This document shows positions 3,967-23,724 of a stretch of 32,000 nucleotides of DNA, piece after piece (position 1 is the first letter of the stretch; every line of letters begins with the position of its first letter). The notes below the pieces were generated by a model. It did not search any database. It saw only the letters and a list, made by a program, of their open reading frames with translations, and was not told the origin of the DNA. A program made the position numbers and the translations under genes. Origin of the DNA: Oleispira antarctica RB-8 (GTDB lineage: Bacteria; Pseudomonadota; Gammaproteobacteria; Pseudomonadales; Oceanobacteraceae); NCBI GenBank assembly GCA_000967895.1, contig FO203512.1:537582-569581 (forward strand), written 5' to 3'.

Positions 3967-4044
3967 CCTCAATCAGAAAATAGACAAAGATTATACAAAG
4001 ACTATGGAAAGAAACATGAAACAGTTGGCAGTCAGGAGTGCAGA

Positions 4045-4914: not shown

Positions 4915-4925
4915 GGACTTAATCG

Positions 4926-6830
4926 GTGTTTAAGCGTTTTTGTAAAATTGCACTGTTGGCTATGACTATTGCCATCAGTATTCCTGCGTTGACTGTTCAT
5001 GCAGAAGATCAGAACTGGCAAGTAAATCTTAAAGATGCCGATATATCGGCGTTCATTGGACAGATTGCTGATATCACTGGTAAGAGCTTTGTTATTGACC
5101 CTAGGGTCAAAGGTAAGGTAACGGTGGTTTCAACTGAAACCATGAATACCGAAGCCGTTTATGAACTTTTCTTATCGGTGTTAAAAGTCCACGGCTATGC
5201 GGCGGTGCCAGCGGGTGATGTTGTCATGGTCGTGCAGCAAAACTCGGTTAAGCAGCAAGGTCGAGATTTAGAAGAGAAGTTCAAAAAACAAAGCCAAGAA
5301 ATGGTCACAAAAGTGATCATGATTAAAAATACACCGGCTTTGGATTTAGTGCCTATCTTGCGCCCGCTGGTGGCTAAATATGGCCACCTCGCGGGGGTGA
5401 AATCTGCCAATGCATTGATCATTTCCGATCATGCTTCAAACATCAATCGTATTGAACAGATTATCGATCGTCTTGATAAGTCTGGCTCTGAAGAGTTAGA
5501 AGTTATTCAATTGAAAGAAGCATGGGTTGGGAACGTTGTGACTATGTTGCAAAGTCTAGATCCCGATAAAGTGGCTCAAGGTAAAGGCTCTTCGAGTGGT
5601 GGTGCTGGTAGTATTCGAGTGGTTGCCGATGAGCGCAGCAATCGATTAATTATTAAGGGTGAGAAGACATCGCGAGAACGTATTCGTATATTGATTCAAC
5701 AGCTAGATAAGCCTTCTTATTTCTCAGGTAGCACCAAGGTTATTCGCTTGAAATACGCGGATGCCAAGAAGTTAGCAGAATTATTGAAAGGGGTTATGTC
5801 AGAATCGGACTCCGGTAGTAAAGATGCCAATAAAGCGAAAGGCAAAGCGAGTATTCATGCTGATGAAGAACTGAACGCTCTTGTGGTACGTGCTGAACCT
5901 TCTATTTTAAAAGAAATTGATGAAATTATTCATGAGCTGGATGTTCGTCGAGCTCAGGTACTAATTGAATCAGCTATTGTTGAAGTGACGGGTGAGGTGA
6001 GCGACTCTTTAGGTTTCCAATGGGCCTTGGGTGATACCGATAACCCTGTTGCGGGTACAAACTTTGGTAATGCTGGGCAGTCTTTATCAACGCTTGCCGC
6101 AGGTGTAGCGTCAGGCACTCCGACCTTGAGTAACGGTTTAACGTTAGGTGGCTTTAAAGAAACGAATGGTCAGGTAGATTTTGGTGTCATTCTACAAGCG
6201 TTAGAAAGTCAGAGTAATACTAACTTACTATCGACTCCTAGTATTATGACGCTTGATAACCAAGAAGCAGAAATTATTGTGGGCCAGAATGTTCCTTTCT
6301 TAACAGGTTCTACTTCGTCAAGTGCGAACAGCAATCCGTTTACCACCATTTCACGTGAAGATATTGGTGTAACGCTGAAAATTAAGCCGCATATCCATGA
6401 AGGTAATGAATTGCGTCTAGAGGTCGAGGTAAGCGCTGAGTCTGTGGCTAATACCACCGTTCAGGGACAGGCGGATTTGATTACCAATAAGCGTTCATTG
6501 AAAACAATGATTTTAGCCGCTGATGAAGAAACAATTGTATTAGGTGGTTTGATCAGTGACGACATTGTTGAAACAGAAAGTAAGGTTCCGCTGTTGGGTG
6601 ACATACCATTATTAGGTTGGTTATTTAAAAGTAAAAGTACACAACATGTGAAGCGTAATTTGATGGTTTTTTTACGCCCAACGATTGTATTGGATAAGCA
6701 AAAAGCGACGACTTTAACTCAAGACAAATACAATGGTGTTTGGGAGTTTGATTTGTCAGGTGATTTAGAAGTGGATGATGTGAATAGACGCATGAGTCGT
6801 TTATTTAAAGGTGTTCAACTGAGTAACTAA
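4926..6830 (+). CDS. gspD: Type II secretion system secretin
   Basis: 634-aa ORF; signal peptide, VNLKDADISAFIGQIADITGKSFVIDPRVKGKVTV, repeated N domains, and secretin core (VGQNVPFLTGS; IVLGGLISDD; KVPLLGDIPLLGWLF). Confidence 0.98.
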   Translation: MFKRFCKIALLAMTIAISIPALTVHAEDQNWQVNLKDADISAFIGQIADITGKSFVIDPRVKGKVTVVSTETMNTEAVYELFLSVLKVHGYAAVPAGDVVMVVQQNSVKQQGRDLEEKFKKQSQEMVTKVIMIKNTPALDLVPILRPLVAKYGHLAGVKSANALIISDHASNINRIEQIIDRLDKSGSEELEVIQLKEAWVGNVVTMLQSLDPDKVAQGKGSSSGGAGSIRVVADERSNRLIIKGEKTSRERIRILIQQLDKPSYFSGSTKVIRLKYADAKKLAELLKGVMSESDSGSKDANKAKGKASIHADEELNALVVRAEPSILKEIDEIIHELDVRRAQVLIESAIVEVTGEVSDSLGFQWALGDTDNPVAGTNFGNAGQSLSTLAAGVASGTPTLSNGLTLGGFKETNGQVDFGVILQALESQSNTNLLSTPSIMTLDNQEAEIIVGQNVPFLTGSTSSSANSNPFTTISREDIGVTLKIKPHIHEGNELRLEVEVSAESVANTTVQGQADLITNKRSLKTMILAADEETIVLGGLISDDIVETESKVPLLGDIPLLGWLFKSKSTQHVKRNLMVFLRPTIVLDKQKATTLTQDKYNGVWEFDLSGDLEVDDVNRRMSRLFKGVQLSN

Positions 6831-6868
6831 TCGCTTGAATTATCTTAAGTTAACGTTAAACAGTGAAT

Positions 6869-6897
6869 AAAAAAGGCCAGCTTAGCTGGCTTTTTTT
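6869..6897 (+). terminator. Rho-independent terminator downstream of gspD
   Basis: GCCAGC(6876-6881)-TTA-GCTGGC(6885-6890) followed by TTTTTTT. Confidence 0.85.
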
Positions 6898-6936
6898 ATG
6901 CCTGTAATTCCGTCTTTAAGGTTAAAAGTTTAATCA

Positions 6937-7530
6937 TCAAAGCACCTGAATATCTTGTTGTTCTAATAAATCGATCAAGGCGATTAATGGTAAACCAATT
7001 AAAGTATTAGGGTCTCGGCCCTCTAAGGCGCTGAATAAACGAATGCCTAAGCCCTCTGATTTAAAACTGCCTGCACAATCTAATGGCATTTCTTGTTCTA
7101 TATAGCGTTCAATTTGCGGCCGTGTTAGCGTGCGAAAATGAACACTAAACGGTTCTACTAGGCTATGGCATTGTTGATTGTCGCTATTGTAAACACACAG
7201 TCCTGTTAAAAAAGTAACGTGCTGACCACTGGCTTGGCTAAGTTGTTGAATCGCGTTCTCAACCGTATGAGGCTTGCCTAAAATCTGCTGCTGGCCATTC
7301 ACCTCTAATACCGCACATTGGTCGCTACCAATAATAATATGATGCGGATATTCCATTTTCAACGCTTTGGCTTTTTCAATGGCCAGGCGTTGTACATAAT
7401 CACTGGGCTGTTCGCTGGGTAATATTGACTCGTCGATATCGGGACTGGCGCAAATAAACGGTAGCTGTAACTTTTCTAATAACTGTTTGCGGTAGACAGA
7501 GCTGGAAGCGAGTAAAAGCGGTAATGACAT
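6937..7530 (-). CDS. Maf family nucleotide pyrophosphatase (YceF-like)
   Basis: 197-aa ORF starting MSLPLLLASSSVYRKQLLEKLQLPF; GSDQ motif and C-terminal GLPLIALIDLL typical of Maf proteins. Confidence 0.93.
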   Translation of the reverse strand: MSLPLLLASSSVYRKQLLEKLQLPFICASPDIDESILPSEQPSDYVQRLAIEKAKALKMEYPHHIIIGSDQCAVLEVNGQQQILGKPHTVENAIQQLSQASGQHVTFLTGLCVYNSDNQQCHSLVEPFSVHFRTLTRPQIERYIEQEMPLDCAGSFKSEGLGIRLFSALEGRDPNTLIGLPLIALIDLLEQQDIQVL

Positions 7531-7570
7531 ACGTTGTGAGCCTTGTGAATAAATCGCCTAAAAATTATGC

Positions 7571-7600
7571 AAAAAAAAGGAGCCGAAGCTCCTTTTTCTT
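7571..7600 (-). terminator. Terminator downstream of sodB (probably bidirectional by symmetry)
   Basis: A-rich tract, GGAGC(7579-7583)-CGAA-GCTCC(7588-7592), T-rich tract. Confidence 0.8.
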
Positions 7601-7629
7601 TTTAGCTACTTATTATAGTAACTGATCAC

Positions 7630-8211
7630 TTACGCTAGGTTAGCGTTAGCGAATTCCCAGTTAACCAATGCCCAGAAACCTTTAAGGTAATCAGGACGTA
7701 CATTGCGGTAATCAATGTAATAAGCGTGTTCCCACAAATCAACAGTGATCAGCGGAGTAATACCTTCTTCTGTGATTGGCGTGCCAGCGTTAGATGTATT
7801 AACGATGTCTAAAGAACCGTCAGCTAGTTGAACCAACCAAGTCCAGCTAGAACCGAAGTTGTTAACCGCTTTGTCGTTCAATTTTTCTTTCATCGCTTCG
7901 AAAGAACCGAAAGAAGCATTGATCGCTTCAGCGATAGCGCCCGTTGGTTCGCCGCCGCCGTTAGGGCTCATGCTGTTCCAGTAGAACGTATGGTTCCAGA
8001 TTTGTGCTGCGTTATTGAAAACAGGACCGGTAGAAGTCTTAACGATTTCTTCTAAAGATTTGTTTTCATCAGCAGTTCCGCCGATAAGACCATTTAACTT
8101 AACTACGTAAGTATTGTGGTGCTTGCCATAGTGAAATGACAATGTTTCTGCAGAAATATGTGGCTCTAATGCATCTTGTGCATAAGGCAATGCTGGTAAT
8201 TCAAACGCCAT
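7630..8211 (-). CDS. sodB: Superoxide dismutase [Fe]
   Basis: 193-aa ORF; [36 protein letters not shown]...[13 protein letters not shown]...[13 protein letters not shown] signatures. Confidence 0.98.
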
Positions 8212-8488
8212 GATTTTCTCTCCAATATTAGCTTGAATGATACGGATAACTGGTAAGGTTCAAATGGGAGTCGAAGCCTTACTTCCGCAATCTGGGGTGA
8301 ATAATAGCACACCTTAAATTATCCGCTACGCATGTAAAATGTGTGGTTTTAGTTTGATCACCTTATCCGTTATACTAGCGCCACTTAAATACCTAAGAAA
8401 ATACCTTAAAAGGCCTGTTTATAAAGCGCTAGGGTGTGAGTACAAGGTACTAATAATCATAATAATGAGCCAGATACTCGGGGCAACT

Positions 8489-9316
8489 ATGTCAAACGAT
8501 CAAGAATCCATACCAAAGATGCAAGCATCACAAGAAGACATGGCGATGCGCCAAAAGCAGTTACAGCAACGTCGTTTAGCAGCGCAGCGTGCAGCAAAGG
8601 CAAATCCATCGGCCGCACAGATAGCGGCACCAGCGCCTAAGCAAACACTTGCTATTATTGCTTTAGTATTGAGTTTGGGGATGGGCGGCTTTGCAGCTTT
8701 TTTGTTTATACAACTACAGGAAGCTAATGCACAGTTGGGGAAAACAGAAGATATTTTAAATGGGCACGCAACCAATTTAGCAGTCTTAAATGATAAATTA
8801 TCGGCTTCCGATGAAAATTCAAATCTATCGGTTGGCGCATTGAAAGTATTATTAAAAGATAACGCCAAAGAAATTCGCAAGCTTTGGGATCTTACGAACA
8901 AAGCGAACAAACCTAACATTGAGAAAAATACTAAAGCGATTTCTAGTGTAAAAGCATCGGTGGTTAAGGTTGATAAAAAAGCGACAGGTATCGATAAAAA
9001 AGTTGTATCGGCCAATAGCAATATTACTGGCAACAAAAACAGCATCGCCGCGCTAAAAACCAGCTTAGCCAATAGCCAAAAATCGTTAGAAACAAAGCTC
9101 GCTGATCTTAAGTCATCCGTTACAGGTTTACCTGAAGCGACTGAAAAGCGTATTGGTAATAATGAGCAGTCAATTCGTTCTATCGATGCGACCCGTAAGA
9201 AGTTAAACAGCTCTATGGCGGAAGTTGAATCTCAGTTTAATGAAATGAAATTAGAAATTGAAGATATTCAAATTCGTTTAGACCGTATGCAAAATGCGAT
9301 GACGGGTACTCTTTAG
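8489..9316 (+). CDS. Hypothetical TM plus coiled-coil protein
   Basis: 275 aa from the internal ATG at 8489 (MSNDQESIPKMQ...); one TM (TLAIIALVLSLGMGGFAAFLFI) and a long periodic coiled-coil region. The track ORF start at 8339 adds an unlikely extension. Confidence 0.75.
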   Translation: MSNDQESIPKMQASQEDMAMRQKQLQQRRLAAQRAAKANPSAAQIAAPAPKQTLAIIALVLSLGMGGFAAFLFIQLQEANAQLGKTEDILNGHATNLAVLNDKLSASDENSNLSVGALKVLLKDNAKEIRKLWDLTNKANKPNIEKNTKAISSVKASVVKVDKKATGIDKKVVSANSNITGNKNSIAALKTSLANSQKSLETKLADLKSSVTGLPEATEKRIGNNEQSIRSIDATRKKLNSSMAEVESQFNEMKLEIEDIQIRLDRMQNAMTGTL

Positions 9317-9320
9317 TTCA

Positions 9321-10220
9321 TTGTCTTATTTAGCTAACTCACAAGGTGTGCTCGCTATATTGCGGCATGCCTTGGAACTTCCTCCGCTTCAATTCTCAGA
9401 TATAAAAATCTTTCGTCAGCATTTAGCCTCCGGTTTTCAACGTTATTCTACAGTACAGAATGCTTTTTATTTAGGCGCGCAAGCGGCAACTTCAGGCATG
9501 GCTTTCTTAGCGGGCTATCAGAATGCGATACGGTGTTTGGATGTGAATTGTCCCAGCGATGAATTGGCTGCATTTTGTGTATCTGAAAAAGGGGTTAAGA
9601 AACCCTGGGATATGGCGACCCGACTATCGGTATCTGATGACGGTTATCTACTCGATGGAAAAAAAGGCTATGTGATGCTTTTACCAGGCGAGTTAGATCG
9701 TATGTATGTGGTTGCAAAAAACGACAAAGATCAGCTTGGTTGTCTTTATGTGCTGGCTAATACAGCCGGTATTTCAACGACCGATGCTTTAGCGGCTCCT
9801 TTTGTAGAAGATATTCCTCATAGTGGAGTGTGTTTTGATAAGGTAAAAATCCCGGCTGATCAGGTATTCGATATAGATGGCCATCAACAAGCAAATAAGC
9901 CGTTTCGTTATTGGGAAGATGTGCACGTTGCGCTGTCTATGATGGGGTGGATGTCACGAGAACTGTTAGGGAGGCAGCAATCATTCGATGGATTGGATGA
10001 TATGGTACAACTCATCTGTCAGTTAATAGAACAGTATGAAGAGCACCCAGACTATTATTGTCTTGAGAGTCTTTTGTTATTAGATAAAAGCCATGAAATC
10101 ATGGATAACTACTCCCAAAACTTATCAGAAGAATCGAAAATTCTATGGCTGAAAGACAGGTTGTTATTACAGATGGGGCAGAAAATGCGCCACCTTGTGA
10201 GAGCTAAAATGGTTAATTAA
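9321..10220 (+). CDS. Acyl-CoA-dehydrogenase-like protein, apparently shortened
   Basis: 299-aa ORF (TTG start). The middle segment resembles the ACAD beta domain (AAFCVSEKGVKKPWDMATRLSVSDDGYLLDGKKGYV...GVCFDKVKIPADQVFD); the C-terminal part does not look like a full catalytic helical domain. Confidence 0.5.
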   Translation: MSYLANSQGVLAILRHALELPPLQFSDIKIFRQHLASGFQRYSTVQNAFYLGAQAATSGMAFLAGYQNAIRCLDVNCPSDELAAFCVSEKGVKKPWDMATRLSVSDDGYLLDGKKGYVMLLPGELDRMYVVAKNDKDQLGCLYVLANTAGISTTDALAAPFVEDIPHSGVCFDKVKIPADQVFDIDGHQQANKPFRYWEDVHVALSMMGWMSRELLGRQQSFDGLDDMVQLICQLIEQYEEHPDYYCLESLLLLDKSHEIMDNYSQNLSEESKILWLKDRLLLQMGQKMRHLVRAKMVN

Positions 10221-14175: not shown

Positions 14176-14523
14176 TCAATGGCTAATCCCAATGTAGTCG
14201 ACCAGCATTGAGCGTCCTTCACAGCCTAATGATTTAATACTCACTTTATGCTTAAAATTAAGCGCCGCGAGTACTAACTGAAACTTTCTCTTTGCTACTT
14301 CTTGATTGTCACTATAAGACCGATACCTGTTTGACAATTTCCCGCCGCACTTATGTGATTTTAGTGACGTAAAGAAATCAAAGCCAGCCTGAGTATCGTC
14401 CTCTATTTGGTATAAAGAAATAATCAATAAGTTATTTTTTACATTATTCTCTTCGGCAAAAGAGGTTTGAATACCCCCTAGAACGAATGAAAATAAAAAA
14501 GCTACCTGAATCAATGACTTCAT
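14176..14523 (-). CDS. Small exported hypothetical protein with two Cys in the mature part
   Basis: 115 aa from the internal start at 14523 with GGAGG upstream on the minus strand; signal peptide MKSLIQVAFLFSFVLGGIQTSFA. Confidence 0.65.
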   Translation of the reverse strand: MKSLIQVAFLFSFVLGGIQTSFAEENNVKNNLLIISLYQIEDDTQAGFDFFTSLKSHKCGGKLSNRYRSYSDNQEVAKRKFQLVLAALNFKHKVSIKSLGCEGRSMLVDYIGISH

Positions 14524-14632
14524 AAACCCTCCTTTAGATAAAAGTATAGCCAATTTTTTAAAACCATCATCAAACCTGAATATATGAACTATGCTGACAT
14601 TAGAAATCTGATAAAAACATCAGGGTTAAGGA

Positions 14633-15700
14633 ATGTTGATGGTCGTTAAAAATTTAAGAATATTATGCATCGGTTTATTAATGTCACTGAATTATGTTCA
14701 GGCGGCAGAACCTGATTTACCGCACATGGCTGAGCCAGCACCGACTCTCTATACAGGCTTTGGCCAATTATTAGATGACGATAAAACGCTGGTCTTAGAA
14801 GAATTAATGGACTTAGATCAAAATATTCAGCGTATCGCACTTTATCATAATGGCGATCGCTTGCACCGCTTAATCCCCAAGCAAGTGCACCAAATGATCG
14901 AGAATAAACTCATGCGTCGTTTAATTGCGAATGGCCGTTTTGATGTCATTCAGTGTCTCGAATGTCGAACGACTAAAGTAGTGATGGCTGTTGATGAGTT
15001 GAAAATATCACAAGCTGCTGAAAATAATCAGCAATTAAGAGCGCTATCAAAAAAAGTGCGTGCAGATGCCTTTATGTTCTGGAGTGCATCTGTACATGAA
15101 AATAAATTTACTATTAATTTGCGCTTAGTCGATGGTAAAAATAATGAGCTGCTATGGCTGAAAGAATATTCTAAAAAGACCACTCAAGAAGCGGAAGAAA
15201 ATGATTTTGATAGAGTTCAATATGAATTCATTGTCGGCGCTTGGGGGGTGAAAGGAAAACGTGAAAGTACCGTTGCCGCCGGGAGTACTGAACTAAAGGG
15301 AGCAACAGTTTTTGGTATACGTCGTAGAGAAAGCACAGAGTTAAATGAAGATATTGAATATACCTTAGGTTTTGAATACTTCACAAACTATTCGTCTGAA
15401 GAACTATTTGATCTCAGTGGTTATAATCTTGAAGGTCGAGTTATTGCAGATATTCCTGCCTTAGATGATGTGCTGGATACGAAAGTTTATCTTGGCATAG
15501 GGCAGTCATTTTTTAATGATGCAAACAGTCTGATCTTTCGTTTTGGCTTTGAATTTCCCTTCTTTAAAGACGGATTTATGGATTTTGGTGTGATGTATAT
15601 GCGAGAAGCCAATGTTAAGTGGAAGACCGATGCTGCGTTTGAAGAAATAGGCACTTTCGGTGGTGCAAGTTATGACTTAACACTCGGTGTGCGCTTCTAA
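14633..15700 (+). CDS. Exported protein with a probable C-terminal outer-membrane beta-barrel-like domain; first gene of the motor-like block
   Basis: 355-aa ORF; signal peptide, N-terminal region with ECRTTKVV..., then alternating beta segments ending in YDLTLGVRF with terminal Phe. The start at 14639 has better SD spacing than 14633. Confidence 0.75.
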   Translation: MLMVVKNLRILCIGLLMSLNYVQAAEPDLPHMAEPAPTLYTGFGQLLDDDKTLVLEELMDLDQNIQRIALYHNGDRLHRLIPKQVHQMIENKLMRRLIANGRFDVIQCLECRTTKVVMAVDELKISQAAENNQQLRALSKKVRADAFMFWSASVHENKFTINLRLVDGKNNELLWLKEYSKKTTQEAEENDFDRVQYEFIVGAWGVKGKRESTVAAGSTELKGATVFGIRRRESTELNEDIEYTLGFEYFTNYSSEELFDLSGYNLEGRVIADIPALDDVLDTKVYLGIGQSFFNDANSLIFRFGFEFPFFKDGFMDFGVMYMREANVKWKTDAAFEEIGTFGGASYDLTLGVRF

Positions 15701-15709
15701 GGACGAATT

Positions 15710-16432
15710 ATGAAACAGTTAATAATTGCTTTATTGATAGTATTAATCAGTGCATGTACGCATGAAAGAACAAATAGAATGCTTACCCAGTATGGTGATA
15801 GTCAGCCTGATTTATTGGGAATTGGCGAACAGAGTACTGAAGCAACTGCTGAAATCTCGCTTGAGACCATAGAGAAGCGTAAGCAAGTTGCTGATTTAGC
15901 AAAAAAGAATCATGGTTTAATGCACATCCATCGCTACGGCCCTGGGTTTGATGTCTTAATGACATTAGATACGGGGGATAGCGATGTTAGTTTTAGTATG
16001 GCGCTGCCTTCAACACCGGGAAGTCTGCAAGACTCACTTCGAAGTGATTTACAAAAAAGTGCAGAAGAAATTGCTGAACAAAACAAACAAGTTCTTGAAA
16101 GCTTGGATGACGATAAAGCTGAACTTCATCATGAAGAATTAGATGAGCGCAGTGAATTAATTGAGCAAAAGAAAATTCAAGACTTTCAAGCTTCAACAAA
16201 ACACATCTTTAGTGCGCAGTCTTTATTTTATAAAAAGCAATATTGGCAATCATTGGATGAAACTAATAAAGCGCTAGAGCTAGTTCCAGACTCTGCTCAA
16301 GCGCATGCTTTGAAAGGCAGCATTTATTACAAAATGGGATTAAGTGCTGAAGCCAAAGCTAGTTGGCAGCAAGCGTTAGAAATAGATCCAACGATGGAAC
16401 AAGTCAAAACCAGTTTGACGCGCTTGAAGTAG
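15710..16432 (+). CDS. Lipoprotein with C-terminal TPR repeats
   Basis: 240-aa ORF; MKQLIIALLIVLISAC lipobox; TPR-like QSLFYKKQYWQSLDETNKALELVPDSAQAHALKGSIYYKMGLSAEAKASWQQALEIDPT. Confidence 0.85.
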   Translation: MKQLIIALLIVLISACTHERTNRMLTQYGDSQPDLLGIGEQSTEATAEISLETIEKRKQVADLAKKNHGLMHIHRYGPGFDVLMTLDTGDSDVSFSMALPSTPGSLQDSLRSDLQKSAEEIAEQNKQVLESLDDDKAELHHEELDERSELIEQKKIQDFQASTKHIFSAQSLFYKKQYWQSLDETNKALELVPDSAQAHALKGSIYYKMGLSAEAKASWQQALEIDPTMEQVKTSLTRLK

Positions 16433-16443
16433 GGGAACGGAAT

Positions 16444-18369
16444 ATGAAATTATTGATACAAGGTATCCTCAATCTGTGTCTGATCTGTGCAGTAGCTTAT
16501 CCTATTGTGAATGCTACGGCTGAGACTGGGAAAACCTTTGAAGTACCGGCTAAAAAAGATGAAATCGAAGAGGTGCGTTTTAAAGATGAAATGGAAGCGC
16601 GATTGAATCGAGACTTACAGGCATATCTTGGGAATAATCGCTTTATCATTCATGTTGAAGCCGAATTGAAAAAAACACGTACTGTTGTAAAAGAACGATC
16701 TAATACCGCGGCTAAGAATATTCCAGAACGCCCAGTATTTACTTCACAACCTTTGCCAGTATCAATCGATAATCGAACAAGAGAAATCGAAGAAACACTC
16801 CCTGGGCTTCCGACCAGTGATTTACCCATTTTCGAAGATAACAGTGTGGAAGTCGATGCGTTGAAAGGCCGTGTTCAGCAATTAGAGAATGAGCGGCAGC
16901 AAGCTCTGGGATATGCTGAAAAATTACGCCAAGAAGCTGAAAAGCAGATAGAAAAAATTAAAGAAAAAACGCTAGGTTATAGAAATTCTATTAATAAACT
17001 CACTATAACCGTGGTATTAGATAAAAGTTTAAAAGATGAGCAAATAGAATTCATTCGTAATTTGATTACTCGTAAAGCGCGCTTAGATGAATTACGAGGA
17101 GACTCTTTAAGCATTGTTCGTACAGAGTTTAAAGACGTTAAGCAAGATGTTGTACTGGATGGTTGGCAACAATACCAAGGCTGGATCATGTTAGCTTGTT
17201 TTGGCTTTATGATGTTGTTATTACTGCTGGTGCTCTATTTATTTAATAAGCGCTTGAGTGAGAGTCTAAAAGAGAATCAGCGAAGAAGTGATAACTTTGA
17301 TAGCCTGACTGTTCCGGCTGCCGTTGAAATGGCTCCTATTGATCATTCGGAAAATGAGGGTAATGATAAGCGTCGTCAGCTTAATGAAATGCGCCAAGAG
17401 CTCGTGACGATTGGCTTAGGCCAGCCACAGCTATTTCAACAGCGTATTAACGAACAGTTAAATAGCGGAAATAGTCAAAATGTAGCGGCCTTATATGAAG
17501 TATTAGGAAAGGGGTTGTTTCGCAGTCTTTGCCCAAAAATATTAAATTCTGATGCTGAAACTTTAGCAGACCAAGTCGCACAACAGCCTTTAGATAATGA
17601 ACAAAAACTTACTTATTTAAATAATCTGCGTCACGAGATGTTAAAAGCGTTAAGTGATGATGAAACGGGTAATGCTCCCTTTGCTTTTTTGGAAAAATTA
17701 AATGATTCACAAGTTTTATATTTAATAAAAGAAGAAGAAACGCGGATCAAAGCGTTGGTTTTATCGCAAGTTCCTGCAAAAAGAGCGGCCAGTTTAGTGC
17801 AGCGACTAGAGGGGCGTGAGCAATCTGCGGTAGCGTATGAATTGGGTGAGTTTGAAACCTTACCCGTATCAACCTTCAAAGACGTTGCGGATCGTTTAGC
17901 ACAAAAATCTTTGAATGTTCCAAGCTTTGAGAATGTATCTGCGAATGGTCTGTCAGTATTAATTAATATGCTAGACACCATGAGCAGTGGTGAAGAAACT
18001 CGTTTACTTAAAACATTAAAAGCGGATAAACCTGAAACCTATTATCGTTTGCGCCAAGTATATTATACCTATGCTGATTTGATGCGAACCCCTGAGCGAG
18101 TGATTGCGAATGAGCTTAGAGATGTTGATCGTACGGTGATGGCGTTATCGCTATGCCATACTACAACCGAATTCAAACGACATGTGTTAACGGGGTTGCC
18201 AGCCAAGCTACGATCTTCTGTCATTGCAGAATTGAAAATACAAGAAGGCCAAGCAGCACAAGAGCAAACTGAGCAGGCTAGAAATCAAGTTGTGGCTAAG
18301 ATGCGTGAAGTATTAAAAGCAGGCCGCTTTTCTATGGAAGAATTGATCGCTGTTGCGAATCCAAGTTAA
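16444..18369 (+). CDS. FliF(C-terminal)-FliG-like fusion membrane protein
   Basis: 641 aa from the ATG at 16444. N-terminal signal/TM, FliF-like periplasmic part (LNRDLQAYLGNNRFIIHVEAELKKTRTVV...INKLTITVVLDKSLKDEQIEFIRNLITRKARLDELRGDSLSIVRTEF), TM (WIMLACFGFMMLLLLLVLYLF), then a FliG-like cytoplasmic part (EEETRIKALVLSQVPAKRAASLVQRL...VIANELRDVDRTVMALSLCHTTTEFKRHVLTGLPAKLRSSVIAEL...QARNQVVAKMREVLKAGRFSMEEL). Confidence 0.8.
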   Translation: MKLLIQGILNLCLICAVAYPIVNATAETGKTFEVPAKKDEIEEVRFKDEMEARLNRDLQAYLGNNRFIIHVEAELKKTRTVVKERSNTAAKNIPERPVFTSQPLPVSIDNRTREIEETLPGLPTSDLPIFEDNSVEVDALKGRVQQLENERQQALGYAEKLRQEAEKQIEKIKEKTLGYRNSINKLTITVVLDKSLKDEQIEFIRNLITRKARLDELRGDSLSIVRTEFKDVKQDVVLDGWQQYQGWIMLACFGFMMLLLLLVLYLFNKRLSESLKENQRRSDNFDSLTVPAAVEMAPIDHSENEGNDKRRQLNEMRQELVTIGLGQPQLFQQRINEQLNSGNSQNVAALYEVLGKGLFRSLCPKILNSDAETLADQVAQQPLDNEQKLTYLNNLRHEMLKALSDDETGNAPFAFLEKLNDSQVLYLIKEEETRIKALVLSQVPAKRAASLVQRLEGREQSAVAYELGEFETLPVSTFKDVADRLAQKSLNVPSFENVSANGLSVLINMLDTMSSGEETRLLKTLKADKPETYYRLRQVYYTYADLMRTPERVIANELRDVDRTVMALSLCHTTTEFKRHVLTGLPAKLRSSVIAELKIQEGQAAQEQTEQARNQVVAKMREVLKAGRFSMEELIAVANPS

Positions 18370-18378
18370 GGATCAAGT

Positions 18379-19182
18379 ATGAATCGATTTTCGTTTAGTA
18401 CACTGGTTGGGATAACGGTCGCTATTAGCCTTTTCATGTACGCCATTGTTTCGAGCACCAATAACTATTTAATGTTTATTAGTGTCTCAAGCTTTGCTTT
18501 GGTGGCGGGAAGCACGTTTGCAGCCTCTTTGATTAGCTATACCACAGCAGACGTCCTTACCGCGATTAAAGCATTATTTGAGACCTTGTTTCATGCGCCG
18601 ACCAGTTCGAAACATTTACGCGGCCATGTAGAGCGCTTTATTGAATGGGGAAGTATTTATCGTCAACAAGGTATTGCGGGATTAGAGTCTTCGCTAACGG
18701 ACAAAGAGCGCAGAGATCCATTTTTAGCACACGGTATGGAGCTATTAAGCAGTGGTTATAAAAACCATGACATTCGTACTATTTTAACCGATGACATGGA
18801 CGCTTTCTGGCAACGAATGACTGTCGAGTCAAAAGTATTAAATACGATGGCTGTTTATGCTCCCGGCTTTGGTATGGTTGGTACCATCATCGGTTTGATT
18901 ATTATGCTCGATAATATGAATGGCGATATGGCCGCCTTAGGTAAAGGTTTGGCATTGGCATTAATTACAACGCTATATGGCGTTGTATTGGCCAACATTT
19001 TCTTTAGACCTGCTGCCAACCAAGTGACCGAAAAACAAGAATCATTATACTTTCGTGATCAAATGATTGTTGAAGGGTTTGTATTGTTAGCCGAGAAGCG
19101 TGACGCATTATTTATGCAAGATCGGTTGAATGCTTACCTCAAACCAAGTGCACGTTATCAGCCAATAGAAGAAGAGCTGTAA
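18379..19182 (+). CDS. MotA/PomA-family stator protein
   Basis: 267-aa ORF; TM pairs and ERRDPFLAHGMELLSSG...VYAPGFGMVGTIIGLIIMLDNM...GKGLALALITTLYGVVLANIFFRP, typical of PomA/MotA. Confidence 0.95.
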   Translation: MNRFSFSTLVGITVAISLFMYAIVSSTNNYLMFISVSSFALVAGSTFAASLISYTTADVLTAIKALFETLFHAPTSSKHLRGHVERFIEWGSIYRQQGIAGLESSLTDKERRDPFLAHGMELLSSGYKNHDIRTILTDDMDAFWQRMTVESKVLNTMAVYAPGFGMVGTIIGLIIMLDNMNGDMAALGKGLALALITTLYGVVLANIFFRPAANQVTEKQESLYFRDQMIVEGFVLLAEKRDALFMQDRLNAYLKPSARYQPIEEEL

Positions 19183-19862
19183 TGACAGAGTCGGTTTCTA
19201 ATAAACACAGGGGGCTAAGACGTCGTCGCCCCAATTTTGAGGATTCATCCAGCTCTTGGTTAATTACCTACTCTGATGCAGTTACTTTGCTGCTCGCTTT
19301 TTTTGTAATGATATTATCTGTCTCAGATTTGAATCAGGGAAAAGTGGAAGCGCTAAAAGAAGGTCTAACAGAAGCGATGACAGGAGAGGCGCCTCCTACA
19401 CCATTTACCGATATTAAAAATGGCTTAGAGCAATTAATTGAGCAGGATGGCTTGCAAGATCAAGTCTCTGTTACTCTAGATAAAGAAGGTGTGAAAATAG
19501 AGTTTTCAAATGTTTCATTATATCAATCAGGTTCGGCCGATATTAAAATTGATGCGATTAAAACACTGAATAAAGTAACTCAAGTTATACTAAAAACCAG
19601 CCATAAGACTCACATGGTCGAAGTGGGTGGGCATACTGATAATGTTCCAATTCATACCGAAAAATTCCCATCAAATTGGGAGTTGTCGTCTGCGCGAGCA
19701 ACCAATGTTGTTAAGTACTTATTAGCAGAAGGAATCGAAAAAGAACGACTAAAAGCGGCAGGTTACGCCGATAGCCGACCTAAAGAAAACAGCCTTAATT
19801 TACCCCTCAATCAGCAGCGTGAAGATAATCGACGCGTGGTTATTTTTGTAAAGCGTTACTAG
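19182..19862 (+). CDS. MotB/PomB-family stator protein with OmpA-like peptidoglycan-binding domain
   Basis: 226-aa ORF; single TM with conserved Asp (SWLITYSDAVTLLLAFFVMILSVSD); OmpA/MotB motif VEVGGHTDNVPI...NWELSSARATNVVKYLL...RLKAAGYADSRP...NRRVVIFV. Shares one base with the upstream stop (TAATG). Confidence 0.96.
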   Translation: MTESVSNKHRGLRRRRPNFEDSSSSWLITYSDAVTLLLAFFVMILSVSDLNQGKVEALKEGLTEAMTGEAPPTPFTDIKNGLEQLIEQDGLQDQVSVTLDKEGVKIEFSNVSLYQSGSADIKIDAIKTLNKVTQVILKTSHKTHMVEVGGHTDNVPIHTEKFPSNWELSSARATNVVKYLLAEGIEKERLKAAGYADSRPKENSLNLPLNQQREDNRRVVIFVKRY

Positions 19863-19902
19863 CGTTACATCATCAAACCCATCACTCAAGATCTTAATTC
19901 AT

Positions 19903-19950
19903 AGATGACATGAAAGTGTCATCTAATGTTATTAAATCTGTCACTTTCAT
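19903..19950. promoter_or_regulatory. Cluster of direct and inverted repeats upstream of the PhoX-like gene; possible Pho-box-like array
   Basis: Heptamers in 11-bp register resembling CTGTCAT: ATGACAT(19905), GTGTCAT(19916), CTGTCAC(19938). Also AGATGACA...TGTCATCT (8-bp stem) and ATGAAAGTG(19910-19918)...CACTTTCAT(19942-19950). Confidence 0.4.
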
Positions 19951-20005: not shown

Positions 20006-21913
20006 ATGGAACTCCTTCAGAAAAACGCTTTATACAAGGCGGTATTACTCGCGATGACAACGAGTATGTTAGTTGCTTGCGGCGGAGATTCGGATGGCGA
20101 CGATGGTATAAATGGTGCTAGCGGTGCTAACGGTACTAATGGTGCTAACGGTACTAATGGTGCAGACGGTCAAAATGCGGGAGGACCTGTTTCAGTAATT
20201 GACCCAACAAGCCTTGTTTTTACCGGTGTAAAAGCCCCAATGACTGATGCTGAAAAACGTACGGTTTTAGCCTCTGATGCCATGATTGACGGTAAGGTTT
20301 ATGGCGGTGCTTATAAAACATTAGTACGTTCTGGTGAGGATGTTAATGGTATCTACTTTGGTCAATTAGTTGATGAGTCGGGTAGCGTATTAAAAGCGGG
20401 TGATGGATCTATTAAAATCTCTGATTCAAATGAATTTACCTCATTATTACCGATCGGCAATAAATTATTCTCAGTTTCTCAGTTTGAAAGTAAGCCAGGT
20501 GCAATGTTCTTGATGGAATTAAATCAAGATGCTGTCGATGGTGAATTAACTGTAAAAAACATGAGCCAAATAGACCAGTCTGGCATTGATGGAGGCTGGG
20601 TTCATTGCGCGGCATCCGTAACCCCTTGGACAACGCATTTAGCGTCAGAAGAATATGAGCCGAATGCTCGTTCTCTGGTTACAGGGTCTGATGCTCAATC
20701 CGATGGCTATACAAGTGGCATGTTGGATTATTACGCCGATATTAACCAATGGAATCCGTATTTCTATGGTTGGAATATTGAAGTTGTTGTCTCAGAAGAT
20801 GCTCAAGTAACAAGTACAAAGCATTATGCAATGGGGCGTTTAGCATTTGAACTTTCTTATGTGATGCCTGATAAAAAAACAACCTATATGACGGATGATG
20901 GAACGAACGTTGGCTTATATATGTTCGTTGCTGATACAGCTGAAGATCTGAGCGCAGGCACGGCTTATGCCGCTAAATGGAATCAAACGTCTGCCGATGG
21001 CATGGGCGCGGCTGACTTAGAATGGATTTCTTTAGGTCATGCGACAGATGCTGAGATTAAAGATTATGTGAAAGGCACCAACGGTAAAACTGTTGCAACT
21101 TTCGCAGATATCTTCACGACGGCAGATGCGACAGGATCGACATGTCCTGATACTTTTACTGCGGTTAATGCCGGTGGTAAAGGACTTGAGTGTTTGAAAG
21201 TGAATGCAGGTATGGAAAAAGCGGCTTCTCGTTTAGAGACACGTCGTTATGCTGCATTAATGGGTGCAACGACAGAATTCAGAAAAGAAGAAGGCGTTAC
21301 TTTCGATAGTAAGCGTAACAAGCTGTATGTTGCTATGTCATCTATTGAAAAAGGCATGATGGATAATGACTCAAATGATTTTGGTGGGCCAAATCACATT
21401 GCACTTAATACCTTAAACAAATGCGGTGGCGTATACGAATTAGACCTTGGAGCAAATGCTGGAATGGGGTCCGACTTTGTTGCACAAAACATGAAGGGCC
21501 TGATTGCTGGTCGCCCAGTCGATGGCAGTGGTTATGGTACAACAACCGAGCCACAAGCTGTTGGTTATGAGAATGGTAATAAGTGTCACATTGATGGAAT
21601 ATCAAACCCAGATAACGTTACGTATATGACGGGCTACGATAAGTTAATTGTCGGTGAAGATACGGGTTCTGGTCACCAGAATGATGTTATTTGGGCTTAT
21701 GACTTTACCTCAGAAGATCTTGTTCGAATTCAAACCACACCTTATGGTTCTGAAACAACGTCTCCTTACTGGTATCCAAATATCAATGGCTGGGCGTACA
21801 TGACTTCCGTTATTCAGCATCCTTATGGTGAGTCTGATGGTGGTGAGAATACTGGGGCAGGAGAAGCGCGTGCTTACACGGGTTATGTCGGTCCTTTCCC
21901 CGCTGTAAACTAA
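20006..21913 (+). CDS. PhoX/DUF839-like lipoprotein with a collagen-like Gly-X-X linker
   Basis: 635-aa ORF; lipobox TTSMLVAC, Gly-X-X repeat, then a long beta-rich domain with VTPWTTHLASEEYEPNAR...FRKEEGVTFDSKRNKLYVAMSS...NKCHIDGISNPDNVTYMTGYDKLIVGEDTGSGHQNDVIWAYDF, resembling PhoX-type DUF839 proteins. Confidence 0.8.
   Translation: MELLQKNALYKAVLLAMTTSMLVACGGDSDGDDGINGASGANGTNGANGTNGADGQNAGGPVSVIDPTSLVFTGVKAPMTDAEKRTVLASDAMIDGKVYGGAYKTLVRSGEDVNGIYFGQLVDESGSVLKAGDGSIKISDSNEFTSLLPIGNKLFSVSQFESKPGAMFLMELNQDAVDGELTVKNMSQIDQSGIDGGWVHCAASVTPWTTHLASEEYEPNARSLVTGSDAQSDGYTSGMLDYYADINQWNPYFYGWNIEVVVSEDAQVTSTKHYAMGRLAFELSYVMPDKKTTYMTDDGTNVGLYMFVADTAEDLSAGTAYAAKWNQTSADGMGAADLEWISLGHATDAEIKDYVKGTNGKTVATFADIFTTADATGSTCPDTFTAVNAGGKGLECLKVNAGMEKAASRLETRRYAALMGATTEFRKEEGVTFDSKRNKLYVAMSSIEKGMMDNDSNDFGGPNHIALNTLNKCGGVYELDLGANAGMGSDFVAQNMKGLIAGRPVDGSGYGTTTEPQAVGYENGNKCHIDGISNPDNVTYMTGYDKLIVGEDTGSGHQNDVIWAYDFTSEDLVRIQTTPYGSETTSPYWYPNINGWAYMTSVIQHPYGESDGGENTGAGEARAYTGYVGPFPAVN
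20105..20176 (+). repeat. Eight Gly-X-X triplets (GIN GAS GAN GTN GAN GTN GAD GQN), including a perfect 18-bp tandem repeat
   Basis: GGTGCTAACGGTACTAAT occurs twice in tandem at 20123-20158. Confidence 0.95.
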
Positions 21914-21984: not shown

Positions 21985-23724
21985 ATGTTTCGTTCTATTA
22001 ATTGTACTATTAATCGTACTATGCCTTGTCTGATAGTTTCTTGCTGTGTAGTTTTATGCCTTACGGCTTGTGATTTTTCTCAAGCTGATGAGCCTTCTCA
22101 ATCGAATGAGCTTTTCCAATCTAATAGTTCAGCAATAGATAAAAGTGCATTAACCAGTGATGTACTCAACAACCCCACTGCTTATATTCCCCCGCAGTGT
22201 TATACAAAAACTACCGCCACAGATGGCGCGATCCATAATCCTTGTTATGTTTGTCACACGGCCAGTAAAGCGCCCAATTTTTTAAATGATACCGATGTTC
22301 AGCAAGAACTTGTATTTCCTGAACCGGGCGTGATTAATCGTTGGGACAATATGTTTAAAGATTACAGTAAGCAAGTAGCCAAGATTAGCGATGAAACAAT
22401 ACTAAAGTATGTCCGCCAAGATAATTATAAAAACAGTCAAAATGAATTAATTTTAGCGGATAAATTACAAGCTTTACCTGCAGAGTGGGATAGAAATAAA
22501 AACGGCCAATGGGATGGGTTCATTCCCGACAGTTATTACAATTTTAATGACAAAGGATTTGATGTCGCCCCTAGTGGTGAATTAACAGGTTGGCGTGTCT
22601 TTGCTTATTATCCTTTTTTAGGCACCTTTATGCCTGTTAATGGTTCCACTGACGATGTCATGATTCGTTTACCAGAGATATTTAGGCAAGATGATAAGGG
22701 CATATTTGATGAGCGCGTTTATGAACTCAATCTATCTATTATCGAATCACTGCTAAAACAAAAAGATATTAATATTGCTGAAGTGGATGAAAATTTATAT
22801 CAAGTAGATTTGAACAAAGATGGCAAGTTGTCACACACAAGTACTATTCGTTTTTCATGGTCTCCAAACGATAATATTTTTATGAGCTACGTTGGCTTGG
22901 CTAAAGCTAAGCTGGCGGCTAAAGAAATAAATCTAGCAGCAGGACTTTACCCCGTTGGCACAGAGTTTCTTCACAGTGTTCGTTACATCGATGAAAAAGA
23001 CGGCAATACAGCAATGGCTGCTAGGATGAAAGAGTTGCGTTATGCCCGAAAAGAAAACTGGCGTAATTATTACCAGCTAGAACGCATTGCGATGAAAGAA
23101 GTAAAAGAACGCCATGATTTTCCCGATAGAACCAAGCAAGTTATCGGCAATATGGAAGTTGGATTAACCGTAGCGCAAGGTTGGACGTATCAAGGTTTTA
23201 TTGAAGATAAACAGGGCGACCTTAGACCCCAATCTTATGAAGAAAGTTATTTTTGTGTCGGTTGTCATAGTGGTACCGGAGCCACCGCAGATACCACTTT
23301 CTCGTTTTCGCGAAAATTTGATAGTGACAGTTTTAAGCAAGGTTGGTACAGCTGGCTTGAAAAAGACTTAGCTGGAATTAGCGATCCATTACGAAATGAT
23401 GGCTTAGGTGAGTATGGATATTATTTAACTCATAACCCGAGTGGTAATGAATACCGCAATAACGATGCGGTCAAAAATAAGTTTTATGATAAGCAGGGTA
23501 ATAAAAAAATAGGTGCTTTTAATGATCTGAAAACAGATATCAGTACCTTGTTAATGCCTGACGTTAAGCACGCGCTGATAATGAATAAAGCCTACAAGGT
23601 TATTGTTGATGAACAAAGTTATAGCCAAGGTCGAGATGGCCATGTTTCTGAGATTGTTAATATTCACAAAGAAGTCGAGTTAGGGCAGGATACCGGCATT
23701 GTTGATGTGCTTAATTTCCACTAG
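21985..23724 (+). CDS. Putative multi-haem (two CXXCH) lipoprotein with Ca-binding-like loops
   Basis: 579-aa ORF; lipobox VVLCLTAC; CYVCH (22243-22257) and CVGCH (23254-23268); EF-hand-like loops DRNKNGQWDGF and DLNKDGKLSH. Confidence 0.8.
   Translation: MFRSINCTINRTMPCLIVSCCVVLCLTACDFSQADEPSQSNELFQSNSSAIDKSALTSDVLNNPTAYIPPQCYTKTTATDGAIHNPCYVCHTASKAPNFLNDTDVQQELVFPEPGVINRWDNMFKDYSKQVAKISDETILKYVRQDNYKNSQNELILADKLQALPAEWDRNKNGQWDGFIPDSYYNFNDKGFDVAPSGELTGWRVFAYYPFLGTFMPVNGSTDDVMIRLPEIFRQDDKGIFDERVYELNLSIIESLLKQKDINIAEVDENLYQVDLNKDGKLSHTSTIRFSWSPNDNIFMSYVGLAKAKLAAKEINLAAGLYPVGTEFLHSVRYIDEKDGNTAMAARMKELRYARKENWRNYYQLERIAMKEVKERHDFPDRTKQVIGNMEVGLTVAQGWTYQGFIEDKQGDLRPQSYEESYFCVGCHSGTGATADTTFSFSRKFDSDSFKQGWYSWLEKDLAGISDPLRNDGLGEYGYYLTHNPSGNEYRNNDAVKNKFYDKQGNKKIGAFNDLKTDISTLLMPDVKHALIMNKAYKVIVDEQSYSQGRDGHVSEIVNIHKEVELGQDTGIVDVLNFH

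Follow-up and report, generated by a model that had tools for sequence, protein, structure and literature searches.

The subject of this study is a group of five adjacent genes in the oil-degrading marine bacterium Oleispira antarctica RB-8, analysed within a stretch of 32,000 nucleotides (the window; contig FO203512.1, forward-strand positions 537,582 to 569,581) to which all positions below refer. In the ORF (open reading frame) list of the window, five + strand ORFs, designated g1 to g5, fill positions 14633-19862. They encode, in order, a predicted outer-membrane (OM) protein, a lipoprotein with tetratricopeptide repeats (TPR), a fusion of FliF- and FliG-like parts joined by one transmembrane (TM) helix, and the two subunits of a flagellar-type stator:

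14633-15700, + strand: g1, 355 aa, predicted OM barrel protein
15710-16432, + strand: g2, 240 aa, TPR lipoprotein
16444-18369, + strand: g3, 641 aa, FliF(RBM3)-TM-FliG fusion
18379-19182, + strand: g4, 267 aa, MotA/PomA-type stator A subunit
19182-19862, + strand: g5, 226 aa, MotB-type stator B subunit
19902-19925, + strand: possible operon-end hairpin

The five genes are arranged as an operon. Spacing is 9 bp between g1 and g2, 11 bp between g2 and g3 and 9 bp between g3 and g4, while g4 and g5 share a 1-bp ATGA overlap, and a purine-rich motif resembling a ribosome-binding site lies ahead of all five starts. These values bear out an earlier note on this DNA, which had described five same-strand genes with gaps of about 10 bp or a 1-bp overlap. 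The same note had reported flagellar export, rod, hook and filament genes to be absent from the window, and a Pfam scan of the window proteins likewise detected none in the 32 kb. For g3, the mechanical ORF opening at TTG 16363 was dropped; ATG 16444 was taken as the start because a 641-aa database protein (P0001) is 100% identical and the N-termini of homologues agree. The promoter scan returned 16 sites against 17.3 expected from shuffles, i.e. not above shuffled sequence, and no convincing sigma-70 promoter upstream of g1; no sigma-28 or sigma-54 motif was found by reading the intergenic sequence. The hairpin has a 10-bp stem, lies 40 nt past the g5 stop and runs into a weak T-rich tail; it is a weak candidate for the operon terminator (consensus scan and sequence reading).

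The stator pair, the fusion protein and their outer-membrane partners

The g4 protein matched Pfam MotA_ExbB (E = 7.5e-26) and, over its full length, solved MotA/PomA structures (phmmer, 4e-29 to 1e-24). It has hydrophobic segments at residues 6-24, 31-52, 159-177 and 186-209 and a large cytoplasmic loop. Full-length NCBIfam alignments were obtained with MotP (2e-48; score 164.6 against a cut-off of 394), PRK09109 (2e-41; 142 against 237), MotA (7e-39) and PomA (7e-37; 127 against 341). The g5 protein has one TM helix with the channel residue Asp32 (nt 19275-19277), a plug region (residues 20-66) and an OmpA-like peptidoglycan-binding domain (residues 114-203), with Pfam matches to MotB_plug (1.3e-14) and OmpA (1.3e-15) and NCBIfam matches to MotD (6e-53; 180 against 283), MotS (3.5e-38) and MotB (3e-35), all under the cut-offs. 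Neither protein reached the NCBIfam cut-off of any named equivalog (PomA/B, MotA/B, MotC/D or MotP/S), and because all scores lie well under these values, g4 and g5 represent a distinct branch of flagellar-type stators.

Coupling residues are conserved in this branch. Over the related loci described below, R95 of g4 was kept in 45/50, E103 in 44/50, and P162 and P211 each in 50/50; Asp32 of g5 was invariant (50/50). From alignment reading and known mutagenesis we take the four g4 residues to be the equivalents of E. coli MotA R90, E98, P173 and P222, R95 and E103 presumably being the charge pair through which MotA touches FliG in flagellar motors. Thr residues in TM3 and TM4 of g4 (GMVGT, ALITTLYG), which we take to be PomA-like, are compatible with Na+ without being diagnostic. 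By sequence, then, the pair qualifies as a flagellar-type MotA (four TM segments, loop, charges and prolines) with its MotB (TM Asp, plug and OmpA domain). A 2025 survey of MotAB proteins defines 'flagellar ion transporters' by the torque-generating loop, the plug and the OmpA domain; in other 5:2 motors the A subunits lack the flagellar torque-generating loop and the B subunits mostly lack the plug and OmpA domain (PMC12505986).

Directly upstream of this pair, g3 encodes a protein with a FliF-like periplasmic part and a FliG-like cytoplasmic part. The periplasmic order is a signal-like peptide (residues 1-25), RBM3a (40-83), a disordered loop (84-130), a long helix (131-171) and RBM3b (174-227). 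A TM helix (240-278; nt 17161-17277) and a linker lead to FliG_N-like (305-405), FliG_M (412-492) and FliG_C (524-630) domains, the last containing the torque helix (587-600; nt 18202-18243). Pfam detected YscJ_FliF_C (PF08345, the FliF C-terminal/RBM3 region; 2.7e-9) at residues 58-229, FliG_M (9.7e-14) at 422-492 and FliG_C (6.4e-14) at 524-630. When phmmer was run against the Protein Data Bank (PDB), residues 326-630 aligned with residues 21-326 of full-length Aquifex FliG (3HJL, E = 3e-13); the best PDB sequence matches of the FliG part were to Aquifex and Thermotoga, and the Vibrio FliF-FliG fusion reached only 6e-6.

An AlphaFold model of g3 (pLDDT 75) gave the same division. It shows an alpha-beta-beta / beta-alpha-beta RBM into which a disordered loop of 47 residues and a helix of 40 residues are inserted, then the TM helix (hydrophobic core 248-266), a disordered linker and an all-helical FliG-like body. 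Foldseek matched the cytoplasmic part to full-length FliG (3hjl, 8umx and 8wiw; E = 3e-10 to 2e-8; 315 aligned columns) and the periplasmic part to the RBM3/collar rings of Salmonella and Vibrio FliF (6sd1, 7d84, 8z4d and others; E ~1e-3, probability 1.0), which are rings of 33-35 subunits, and weakly to SpoIIIAG. The last domain superposed on FliG_C of the MotAB-FliG complex 8UCS (8ucs_H) with a TMt of 0.84 and a root-mean-square deviation of 1.5 A. The FliG_M and FliG_C Pfam matches, PF08345 and the Foldseek matches therefore identify g3 as a natural FliF(RBM3+TM)-FliG(N-M-C) fusion, in which, as far as sequence and model go, the N, M and C armadillo-type domains of FliG and the charged torque helix are all present. 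Within the torque helix, K/R588 was conserved in 49/51 and E/D596 in 45/51 sequences, and K598 and E601 were also kept. The periplasmic loop carries the motif LPGLP (residues 119-123; nt 16798-16812), which was found in ~50/51 sequences, even at 20% overall identity. The periplasmic insertion as a whole, long helix plus disordered loop, varies in length between lineages.

Other flagellar features are missing from g3. RBM1 and RBM2 are the parts of FliF that surround the export gate; neither was found, with no match to PF01514 and one RBM and one TM helix in the model, where a canonical FliF has three RBMs and two TM helices. The position of the FliM-binding EHPQR motif reads EETR, only E431 and R434 being kept in the family, and neither FliM nor FliN was detected in the window or in any related locus inspected. 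Since RBM1/2 and the FliM-binding motif are lost, g3 cannot substitute for its flagellar counterparts in the MS/C-ring. Scores against TIGR00206 (17.5 bits, cut-off 129.75) and TIGR00207 (58.6 bits, cut-off 226.7) were low, and the latter, far under its cut-off, indicates that g3 is not a FliG equivalog.

The first two genes encode the OM partners. The g1 product, annotated in the database as 'conserved hypothetical protein' (O. antarctica RB-8, 100% identical), has a signal peptide (residues 1-24), a periplasmic alpha/beta domain (~60-182) and a C-terminal 8-strand beta-barrel (~194-355). It had no significant Pfam match; over residues 133-187, sub-threshold similarity was seen to FlgT_M (17.2 bits, cut-off 31.2) and FlgO (14.3 bits, cut-off 22.6). 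Foldseek comparison of its AlphaFold model (pLDDT 73) with the PDB placed the barrel (E = 3.5e-6 to 7e-4) next to NspA (3.5e-6), the OmpA TM domain, Ail, OmpX and OmpW, and the N-terminal domain next to the TolB N-terminal domain (5.7e-6), LpoB (9e-5) and GNA1162. The C-terminus (...GVRF) ends in the Phe typical of OM proteins, and a terminal F or L was found in 45/45 homologues. From the model, g1 is thus probably a secreted 8-strand barrel protein of the OM with a TolB-N/LpoB/FlgT-M-like periplasmic domain. A CxxC motif (C-L-E-C, C108/C111; 14954-14965) was conserved in 43/45 homologues and may be a structural disulfide, a redox site or a metal site; it adjoins a low-confidence segment of the model (residues 113-126).

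The g2 product has a lipobox (L-I-S-A-C, Cys17; nt 15749-15760), and the Thr at +2 suggests sorting to the OM. TPR repeats occupy its C-terminal part (residues ~161-238; nt 16190-16423; TPR_1 3.5e-9, TPR_2 9e-8, TPR_11 4e-7). The NCBIfam matches, to the TPR lipoproteins PilW, Tgl and NlpI, were weak and far under the cut-offs. Homologues are often ~180-190 aa long, the lipid anchor and the TPR block being the constant parts; nearly all have the lipobox, and in the A. fischeri copy the signal peptide is a plain one, lacking the lipobox Cys.

The assignments made in the earlier note fared well by these analyses. Its OM barrel-like protein (g1) agrees with the barrel neighbours and terminal Phe, its TPR lipoprotein (g2) with the lipobox and TPR_1 match, and its complete stator pair with a peptidoglycan-binding domain (g4/g5) with the MotA_ExbB, MotB_plug and OmpA domains. 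The FliF/FliG-like ring candidate (g3) stands as a fusion with a full-length FliG; its FliF portion has to be narrowed to an RBM3-like module with one TM helix, and EHPQR is lost.

Co-inheritance and reach of the cassette

The distribution of the cassette was followed in one genome per GTDB species with a g3 profile built from an 8-sequence alignment (A2), and 43 loci with a g3 relative were obtained. Hosts were Oleispira, Thalassolituus, Bermanella, Oceanobacter, Oceaniserpentilla, Bacterioplanoides, Gynuella, Marinicellulosiphila, Saccharospirillaceae, Moritella sp. JT01 and three Aliivibrio species, one of the Aliivibrio loci being on chromosome II of A. fischeri ES114 (L045). Wherever the contig suffices, loci L001-L045 have the five genes in constant order (tblastn with all five Oleispira proteins), with the exception of L043, where g1 was unmatched. 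More distant, metagenomic relatives have the same components. At L046 (g3 identity 23%) all five genes and their order are kept; in L047 and L049 (the latter at 25% identity) the order is likewise kept, the g1 slot being taken by a divergent protein and an extra sixth gene of ~470 aa being present; and L050 (21% identity) has all five homologues in a permuted order (FliG-like, g1-like, TPR, MotA, MotB).

The surroundings of the cassette are less constant. Upstream neighbours (a DUF2846 protein, fumarase and pterin-4a dehydratase) are common to Oleispira, Thalassolituus and Bermanella. Downstream neighbours differ, with a PhoX-like gene in one Thalassolituus locus (L001) and CTP synthase and enolase in another locus (L002), and the flanks change between lineages (L002 versus L001, and L039-L050). 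Because downstream neighbours are not shared, the unit can be bounded to the five genes. The genes adjoining g5 in the window, PhoX-like and di-haem, were considered as further members and rejected, since they stand beside the cassette in L001 and L002 has CTP synthase and enolase in their place. Co-inheritance of the five genes through deep divergence, neighbourhood change and permutation of the order is strong evidence for one functional unit.

Exhaustive HMMER searching of 1.84 billion representatives (clusters at 50% identity) gave 306 clusters in the g3 family at E <= 1e-10, most of them 550-720 aa long and matching from the RBM/TM region through the end of FliG_C. No plasmid-borne g3 was detected by tblastn against 72,556 plasmids. 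The ratio of non-synonymous to synonymous divergence (dN/dS) was <=0.06 wherever dS was estimable (10/20 gene-by-locus comparisons, with at least one estimate per gene); relative to the other Oleispira copies dN was 0.04-0.2, and dS was saturated in the remaining comparisons.

Several loci have peculiarities of their own. The sixth gene after motB (L047 11108-12517 and L049 10807-12222) encodes proteins of ~470 aa with 26% mutual identity (E = 7e-22), and the proteins in the g1 slot of the same loci (L047 5086-6336 and L049 5177-6406; 409-416 aa) are 29% identical to each other and are both missed by BLAST with Oleispira g1. MotA of L047 is split into ORFs of 131 and 137 aa, by a frameshift or an assembly error. 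At L046 (1099-4501 and 10463-14778) the cassette adjoins a TraG/VirD4-like coupling-protein gene and small unknown genes, with a 1045-aa unknown protein after it; this may be a conjugative or integrative element that carries the cassette. A Bermanella-type cassette contig (L029, JBLHVV010000051.1) is binned in a 'Crocinitomicaceae' (Bacteroidota) metagenome-assembled genome, and a partial g1 homologue (P0376) carries the label Psychrobacter glaciei; in both cases binning contamination seems likelier than genuine occurrence in a non-flagellated host.

Relation to the flagellum and to other ion-driven machines

O. antarctica has a normal polar flagellum made from other genes, FleQ, FliL and FlaA/B having been seen in a proteome study (PMC7318663). 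The clearest information on the cassette in relation to swimming comes from Vibrio fischeri (A. fischeri), where L045 corresponds to VF_A0183-0187, with all five genes in unchanged order, and includes the published motA2 (VF_A0186) and motB2 (VF_A0187). The Oleispira proteins share 28% (g1), 28% (g3), 44% (g4) and 40% (g5) identity with their counterparts there; g2 aligns over a TPR stretch of 47 residues only (38%). Brennan et al. 2013 (PMC3948606) report that insertions in motA2 or motB2 leave soft-agar motility normal, whereas mutants in motA1 or motB1 do not move; that motA1B1, but not motA2B2, are activated by FlrA; and that, of the complete Vibrio genomes available at the time, only V. 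fischeri had motA2B2. The text searched treats the stator paralogues alone, with no discussion of the three upstream genes or of a separate machine. VF_A0183-0185 and the five-gene system had no mention in the full-text literature searched. Matches to 'FliG2' proved to concern spirochaete or lateral-flagellar FliG rather than the g3 system, and a Lysobacter paper was set aside as its subject is lost flagellar genes. As far as we found, the system is undescribed, though a 2013 study of V. fischeri had already picked out its stator genes.

Taken with the loss of RBM1/2, the altered EHPQR/FliM-binding site and the gene context, the motility and regulation of the V. fischeri orthologues point against the cassette being part of the canonical swimming flagellum. 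The earlier note had read the locus as a candidate new machine, a reading that would fall if the locus were a dispersed part of the standard flagellum. Its expectation that the genes travel together is borne out across Oceanospirillales, Moritella, Aliivibrio and relatives at 21-25% identity, no described system with the same gene set came up in the literature searched, and the findings on motA2/motB2 (unneeded for soft-agar swimming, not FlrA-activated; PMC3948606) argue against a dispersed flagellar part.

The shared elements nevertheless tie the cassette to the flagellar motor core: a MotA with the R/E loop, a MotB with plug, Asp and OmpA domain, a FliG N-M-C with torque helix, and FliF RBM3 with its adjacent TM helix. 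It differs in the natural fusion of FliF and FliG, the lack of RBM1/RBM2, a helix and the LPGLP loop in place of the beta-collar, the loss of EHPQR, the absence of accompanying genes for FliM/N, export, rod, hook or filament, and in its partners, an OM barrel protein and a TPR lipoprotein. We consider it best filed as a variant of the flagellar stator-rotor pair. Artificial FliF-FliG fusions are known to assemble rings (PMC6079021, PMC10941966).

On this basis we lean towards the view that the five genes encode a self-contained stator-rotor module derived from the flagellar motor and coupled to the OM, without the parts that make a flagellum. In such a module g4 and g5 would form an ion channel and rotary stator of the MotA5B2 type, anchored to peptidoglycan by the g5 OmpA domain and gated by the plug. 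Ion flow through the Asp32 channel would turn the MotA pentamer, and the loop charges R95 and E103 of g4 would push on the torque helix of g3 (K588, E596, K598, E601). Held in the inner membrane by its one TM helix, g3 would most likely be assembled into a ring by its periplasmic RBM3-like domain, with the FliG domains as the rotor; because FliM/FliN are absent and EHPQR is lost, this rotor would be switchless and turn in one direction only. The insertion in RBM3 (a ~40-residue helix and the LPGLP loop), which takes the place of the FliF beta-collar, would point toward the OM and could engage the TPR domain of g2, the periplasmic domain of g1, or both. The OM pair g1/g2 could then be either the driven load or a concentric scaffold, similar to the H-ring and T-ring, that positions the stators; we incline to the former, so that energy may be transferred to the OM/peptidoglycan layer. 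The more specific version, a free-standing rotary motor in which a g3 ring is spun by dedicated stators and delivers torque or tension to the OM barrel/TPR-lipoprotein complex, is offered tentatively, as something we rate at less than an even chance.

A number of observations weigh against a self-contained module. To our knowledge all named hosts (Oleispira, Thalassolituus, Bermanella, Oceanobacter, Moritella, Aliivibrio and Gynuella) are polar-flagellated marine gammaproteobacteria, and with every one of them flagellated, a dependence on the flagellum is conceivable. The faint FlgT_M/FlgO similarity of g1 and the precedent of TPR proteins as stator scaffolds fit an accessory flagellar role equally well. 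The torque-helix charge equivalent to R297 is not kept in g3 by alignment reading, and confidence in the structure models of g1 and g3 is moderate (pLDDT 73-75, pTM 0.30-0.45). A distant locus (L048) has the TPR lipoprotein and FliG-fusion genes with no adjacent MotAB, so either its stator genes lie at another site or the mechanism differs in this clade; an unknown 207-aa protein follows the FliG-fusion gene there (6197-9535). Finally, motA2B2 went down together with fliA and cheV2 in the biofilm transcriptome of V. fischeri overexpressing RscS.

Several of these points are what would be expected if the cassette were an accessory module of the polar flagellum, i.e. an alternative stator set with its own periplasmic scaffold, in which g1 would be H-ring-like, g2 would resemble T-ring/MotX/MotK/PflB proteins, and g3 would be an adaptor docking at or near the flagellar rotor for high load, cold, surfaces or pressure. 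Alternative stator sets are known, such as MotCD of Pseudomonas and MotPS of Bacillus, and the best scores of g4/g5 were to MotP, PRK09109, PomA, MotD and MotS. A TolB-N-like fold, as in g1, also occurs in FlgT; the hosts are flagellated; and motA2B2 fell with fliA and cheV2 in the biofilm model. TPR proteins scaffold stators in other motors (MotK/MotC; review PMC13023049). The known H-/T-ring and stator scaffolds (FlgT, FlgO, FlgP, MotX, MotY, PflA/B, MotK) likewise place OM-associated, TPR or Sel1-type proteins beside a Na+/H+ stator, but an integral 8-strand barrel like that of g1 is known from none of them, and the cassette has no LP-ring seat. We nevertheless regard an accessory role as unlikely: a complete FliG-like rotor domain with a kept torque helix would be superfluous for an extra stator set, g3 without RBM1/2 and the FliM-binding motif is unfit for the MS/C-ring, its FliG part is very divergent from gammaproteobacterial FliG, and the cassette has housekeeping genes around it and travels as one block. 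Normal swimming of motA2 and motB2 mutants and the position of these genes outside the FlrA regulon (PMC3948606) speak in the same direction.

We give no greater probability to a linear force transducer of the Tol-Pal/Ton type, with g3 ringless and present in single or few copies like TolA/TonB, the stator pulling or deforming the g3 arm and thereby tugging g1 and the CpoB-like g2 for envelope maintenance, tethering or remodelling. The analogy with TolQ-TolR-TolA-TolB-Pal-CpoB can be drawn part by part (a predicted 5:2 motor, an extended long-helix protein in the inner membrane, a domain like TolB-N/LpoB, a TPR protein, and a peptidoglycan binder of the OmpA type), both being presumably envelope-spanning, ion-driven and linked to OM proteins, and the g3 insertion, a long helix with a lineage-variable disordered loop, is spacer-like. 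The stator, however, is of the flagellar type: NCBIfam tolQ (E = 3.7e-3) and likewise exbB2 gave 17 bits against cut-offs of 221 and 135, and Tol/Ton membership was rejected on these values (E ~4e-3). A FliG domain on the cytoplasmic face takes the place of a TolA TM helix docked in the motor, and the cassette is without a TolA/TonB-like protein, a TolB beta-propeller or a Pal lipoprotein. The periplasmic fold of g3 is that of the ring-building RBM3 of FliF (33-35-mer rings), and FliG domains are known solely as ring-forming rotor elements.

A Zorya-like anti-phage system, or another defence or sensor system in which a MotAB-type channel senses envelope perturbation and passes a signal into the cytoplasm, is very improbable. 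The g5 protein matched ZorB models (1.4e-18), as any MotB would; the distant L046 copy next to a TraG/VirD4-like gene suggests a mobile element; and the distribution among vibrios is patchy (PMC3948606). Against this, g4 scored at most 15.4 bits with ZorA and the long ZorA tail is absent, no ZorC/ZorD-like or other effector genes were found, g1 and g2 had no PADLOC match, and no copy was found among the plasmids searched. Zorya membership was rejected because the PADLOC matches, for g5, were generic MotB matches. The constant housekeeping surroundings of the Oceanospirillales cassettes (fumarase, pterin-4a dehydratase) indicate vertical descent and not a defence island. Equally improbable is a functionless, decaying relic of a second flagellar system. 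Lost secondary flagellar clusters do leave remnants in many bacteria, and MotA of L047 is split, but five intact genes under strong purifying selection (dN/dS <=0.06 where estimable), catalytic and contact residues kept over ~50 loci down to 21% identity, and a domain fusion with two constant non-flagellar OM partners effectively refute such decay.

Other machines in which an inner-membrane ion motor energises a process at or beyond the OM are Agl-Glt, GldLM/T9SS, Zorya and ExbBD-TonB, and Agl-Glt resembles the cassette further in having OM barrels and TPR proteins. None of them is known to have a FliG-type rotor domain or a FliF RBM, and no specific profile matches to them were found in the cassette (NCBIfam, PADLOC). 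Judged by the features compared, the cassette lies outside the canonical flagellum, the Tol/Ton and Zorya systems and the gliding systems.

Should the free-standing rotary motor be right, it would provide the first FliG-MotA torque interface working outside a flagellum. It could then represent a new class of envelope machine (for OM remodelling, movement of surface proteins, vesiculation or adhesion), or else a living relation of the rotor-stator module as it was before it joined the type III secretion core, or of a line that never did. A conserved cassette with such a stator, its own membrane-anchored FliG rotor and two OM proteins, and nothing else flagellar, would contradict the current view of flagellar-type stators and FliG as flagellum-specific. 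The cassette bears on the evolutionary assembly of the flagellar motor. With only five proteins it would also be a minimal natural system for the study of stator-rotor coupling. The orthologue in the genetically tractable squid symbiont V. fischeri ES114 (VF_A0183-0187) makes the cassette directly testable, and its family is widespread in those marine Oceanospirillales that are dominant in cold oil-spill communities.

Neighbouring genes in the window

The remaining window genes include GspN/C/D, Maf, SodB, class I fumarase, pterin-4a dehydratase, a PhoX-like lipoprotein, PpnN, FBPase, Mpl and similar genes. A 455-aa protein at 1633-3000 (+) has a DsbA-like thioredoxin fold in its C-terminal half (2.7e-18), its N-terminal ~260 aa being without a Pfam match. 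It is followed by a partial type II secretion cluster at 3199-6830 (+), with a gspN-like gene (T2SSN, 6.7e-11), gspC (T2SSC and PDZ) and the secretin gene gspD; no gspE-M come after gspD, where maf and sodB lie on the opposite strand.

On the other side of the g1 start, a small divergent ORF (14176-14553, -) encodes a secreted protein of 125 aa if read from TTG, without a Pfam match; an internal start (MKSLIQV...) is more probable. L002 has a 114-aa gene on the minus strand at the corresponding place, and none is called in L001. Directly 3' of the cassette, 20006-21913 (+) encodes the PhoX-like lipoprotein, with the lipobox LVAC and a collagen-like G-x-x repeat (GINGASGANGTNGANGTNGADGQN). The next gene, 21985-23724 (+), encodes a 579-aa protein with two CxxCH haem-binding motifs (CYVCH and CVGCH), whose Thalassolituus counterpart belongs to Pfam Aq_1262.

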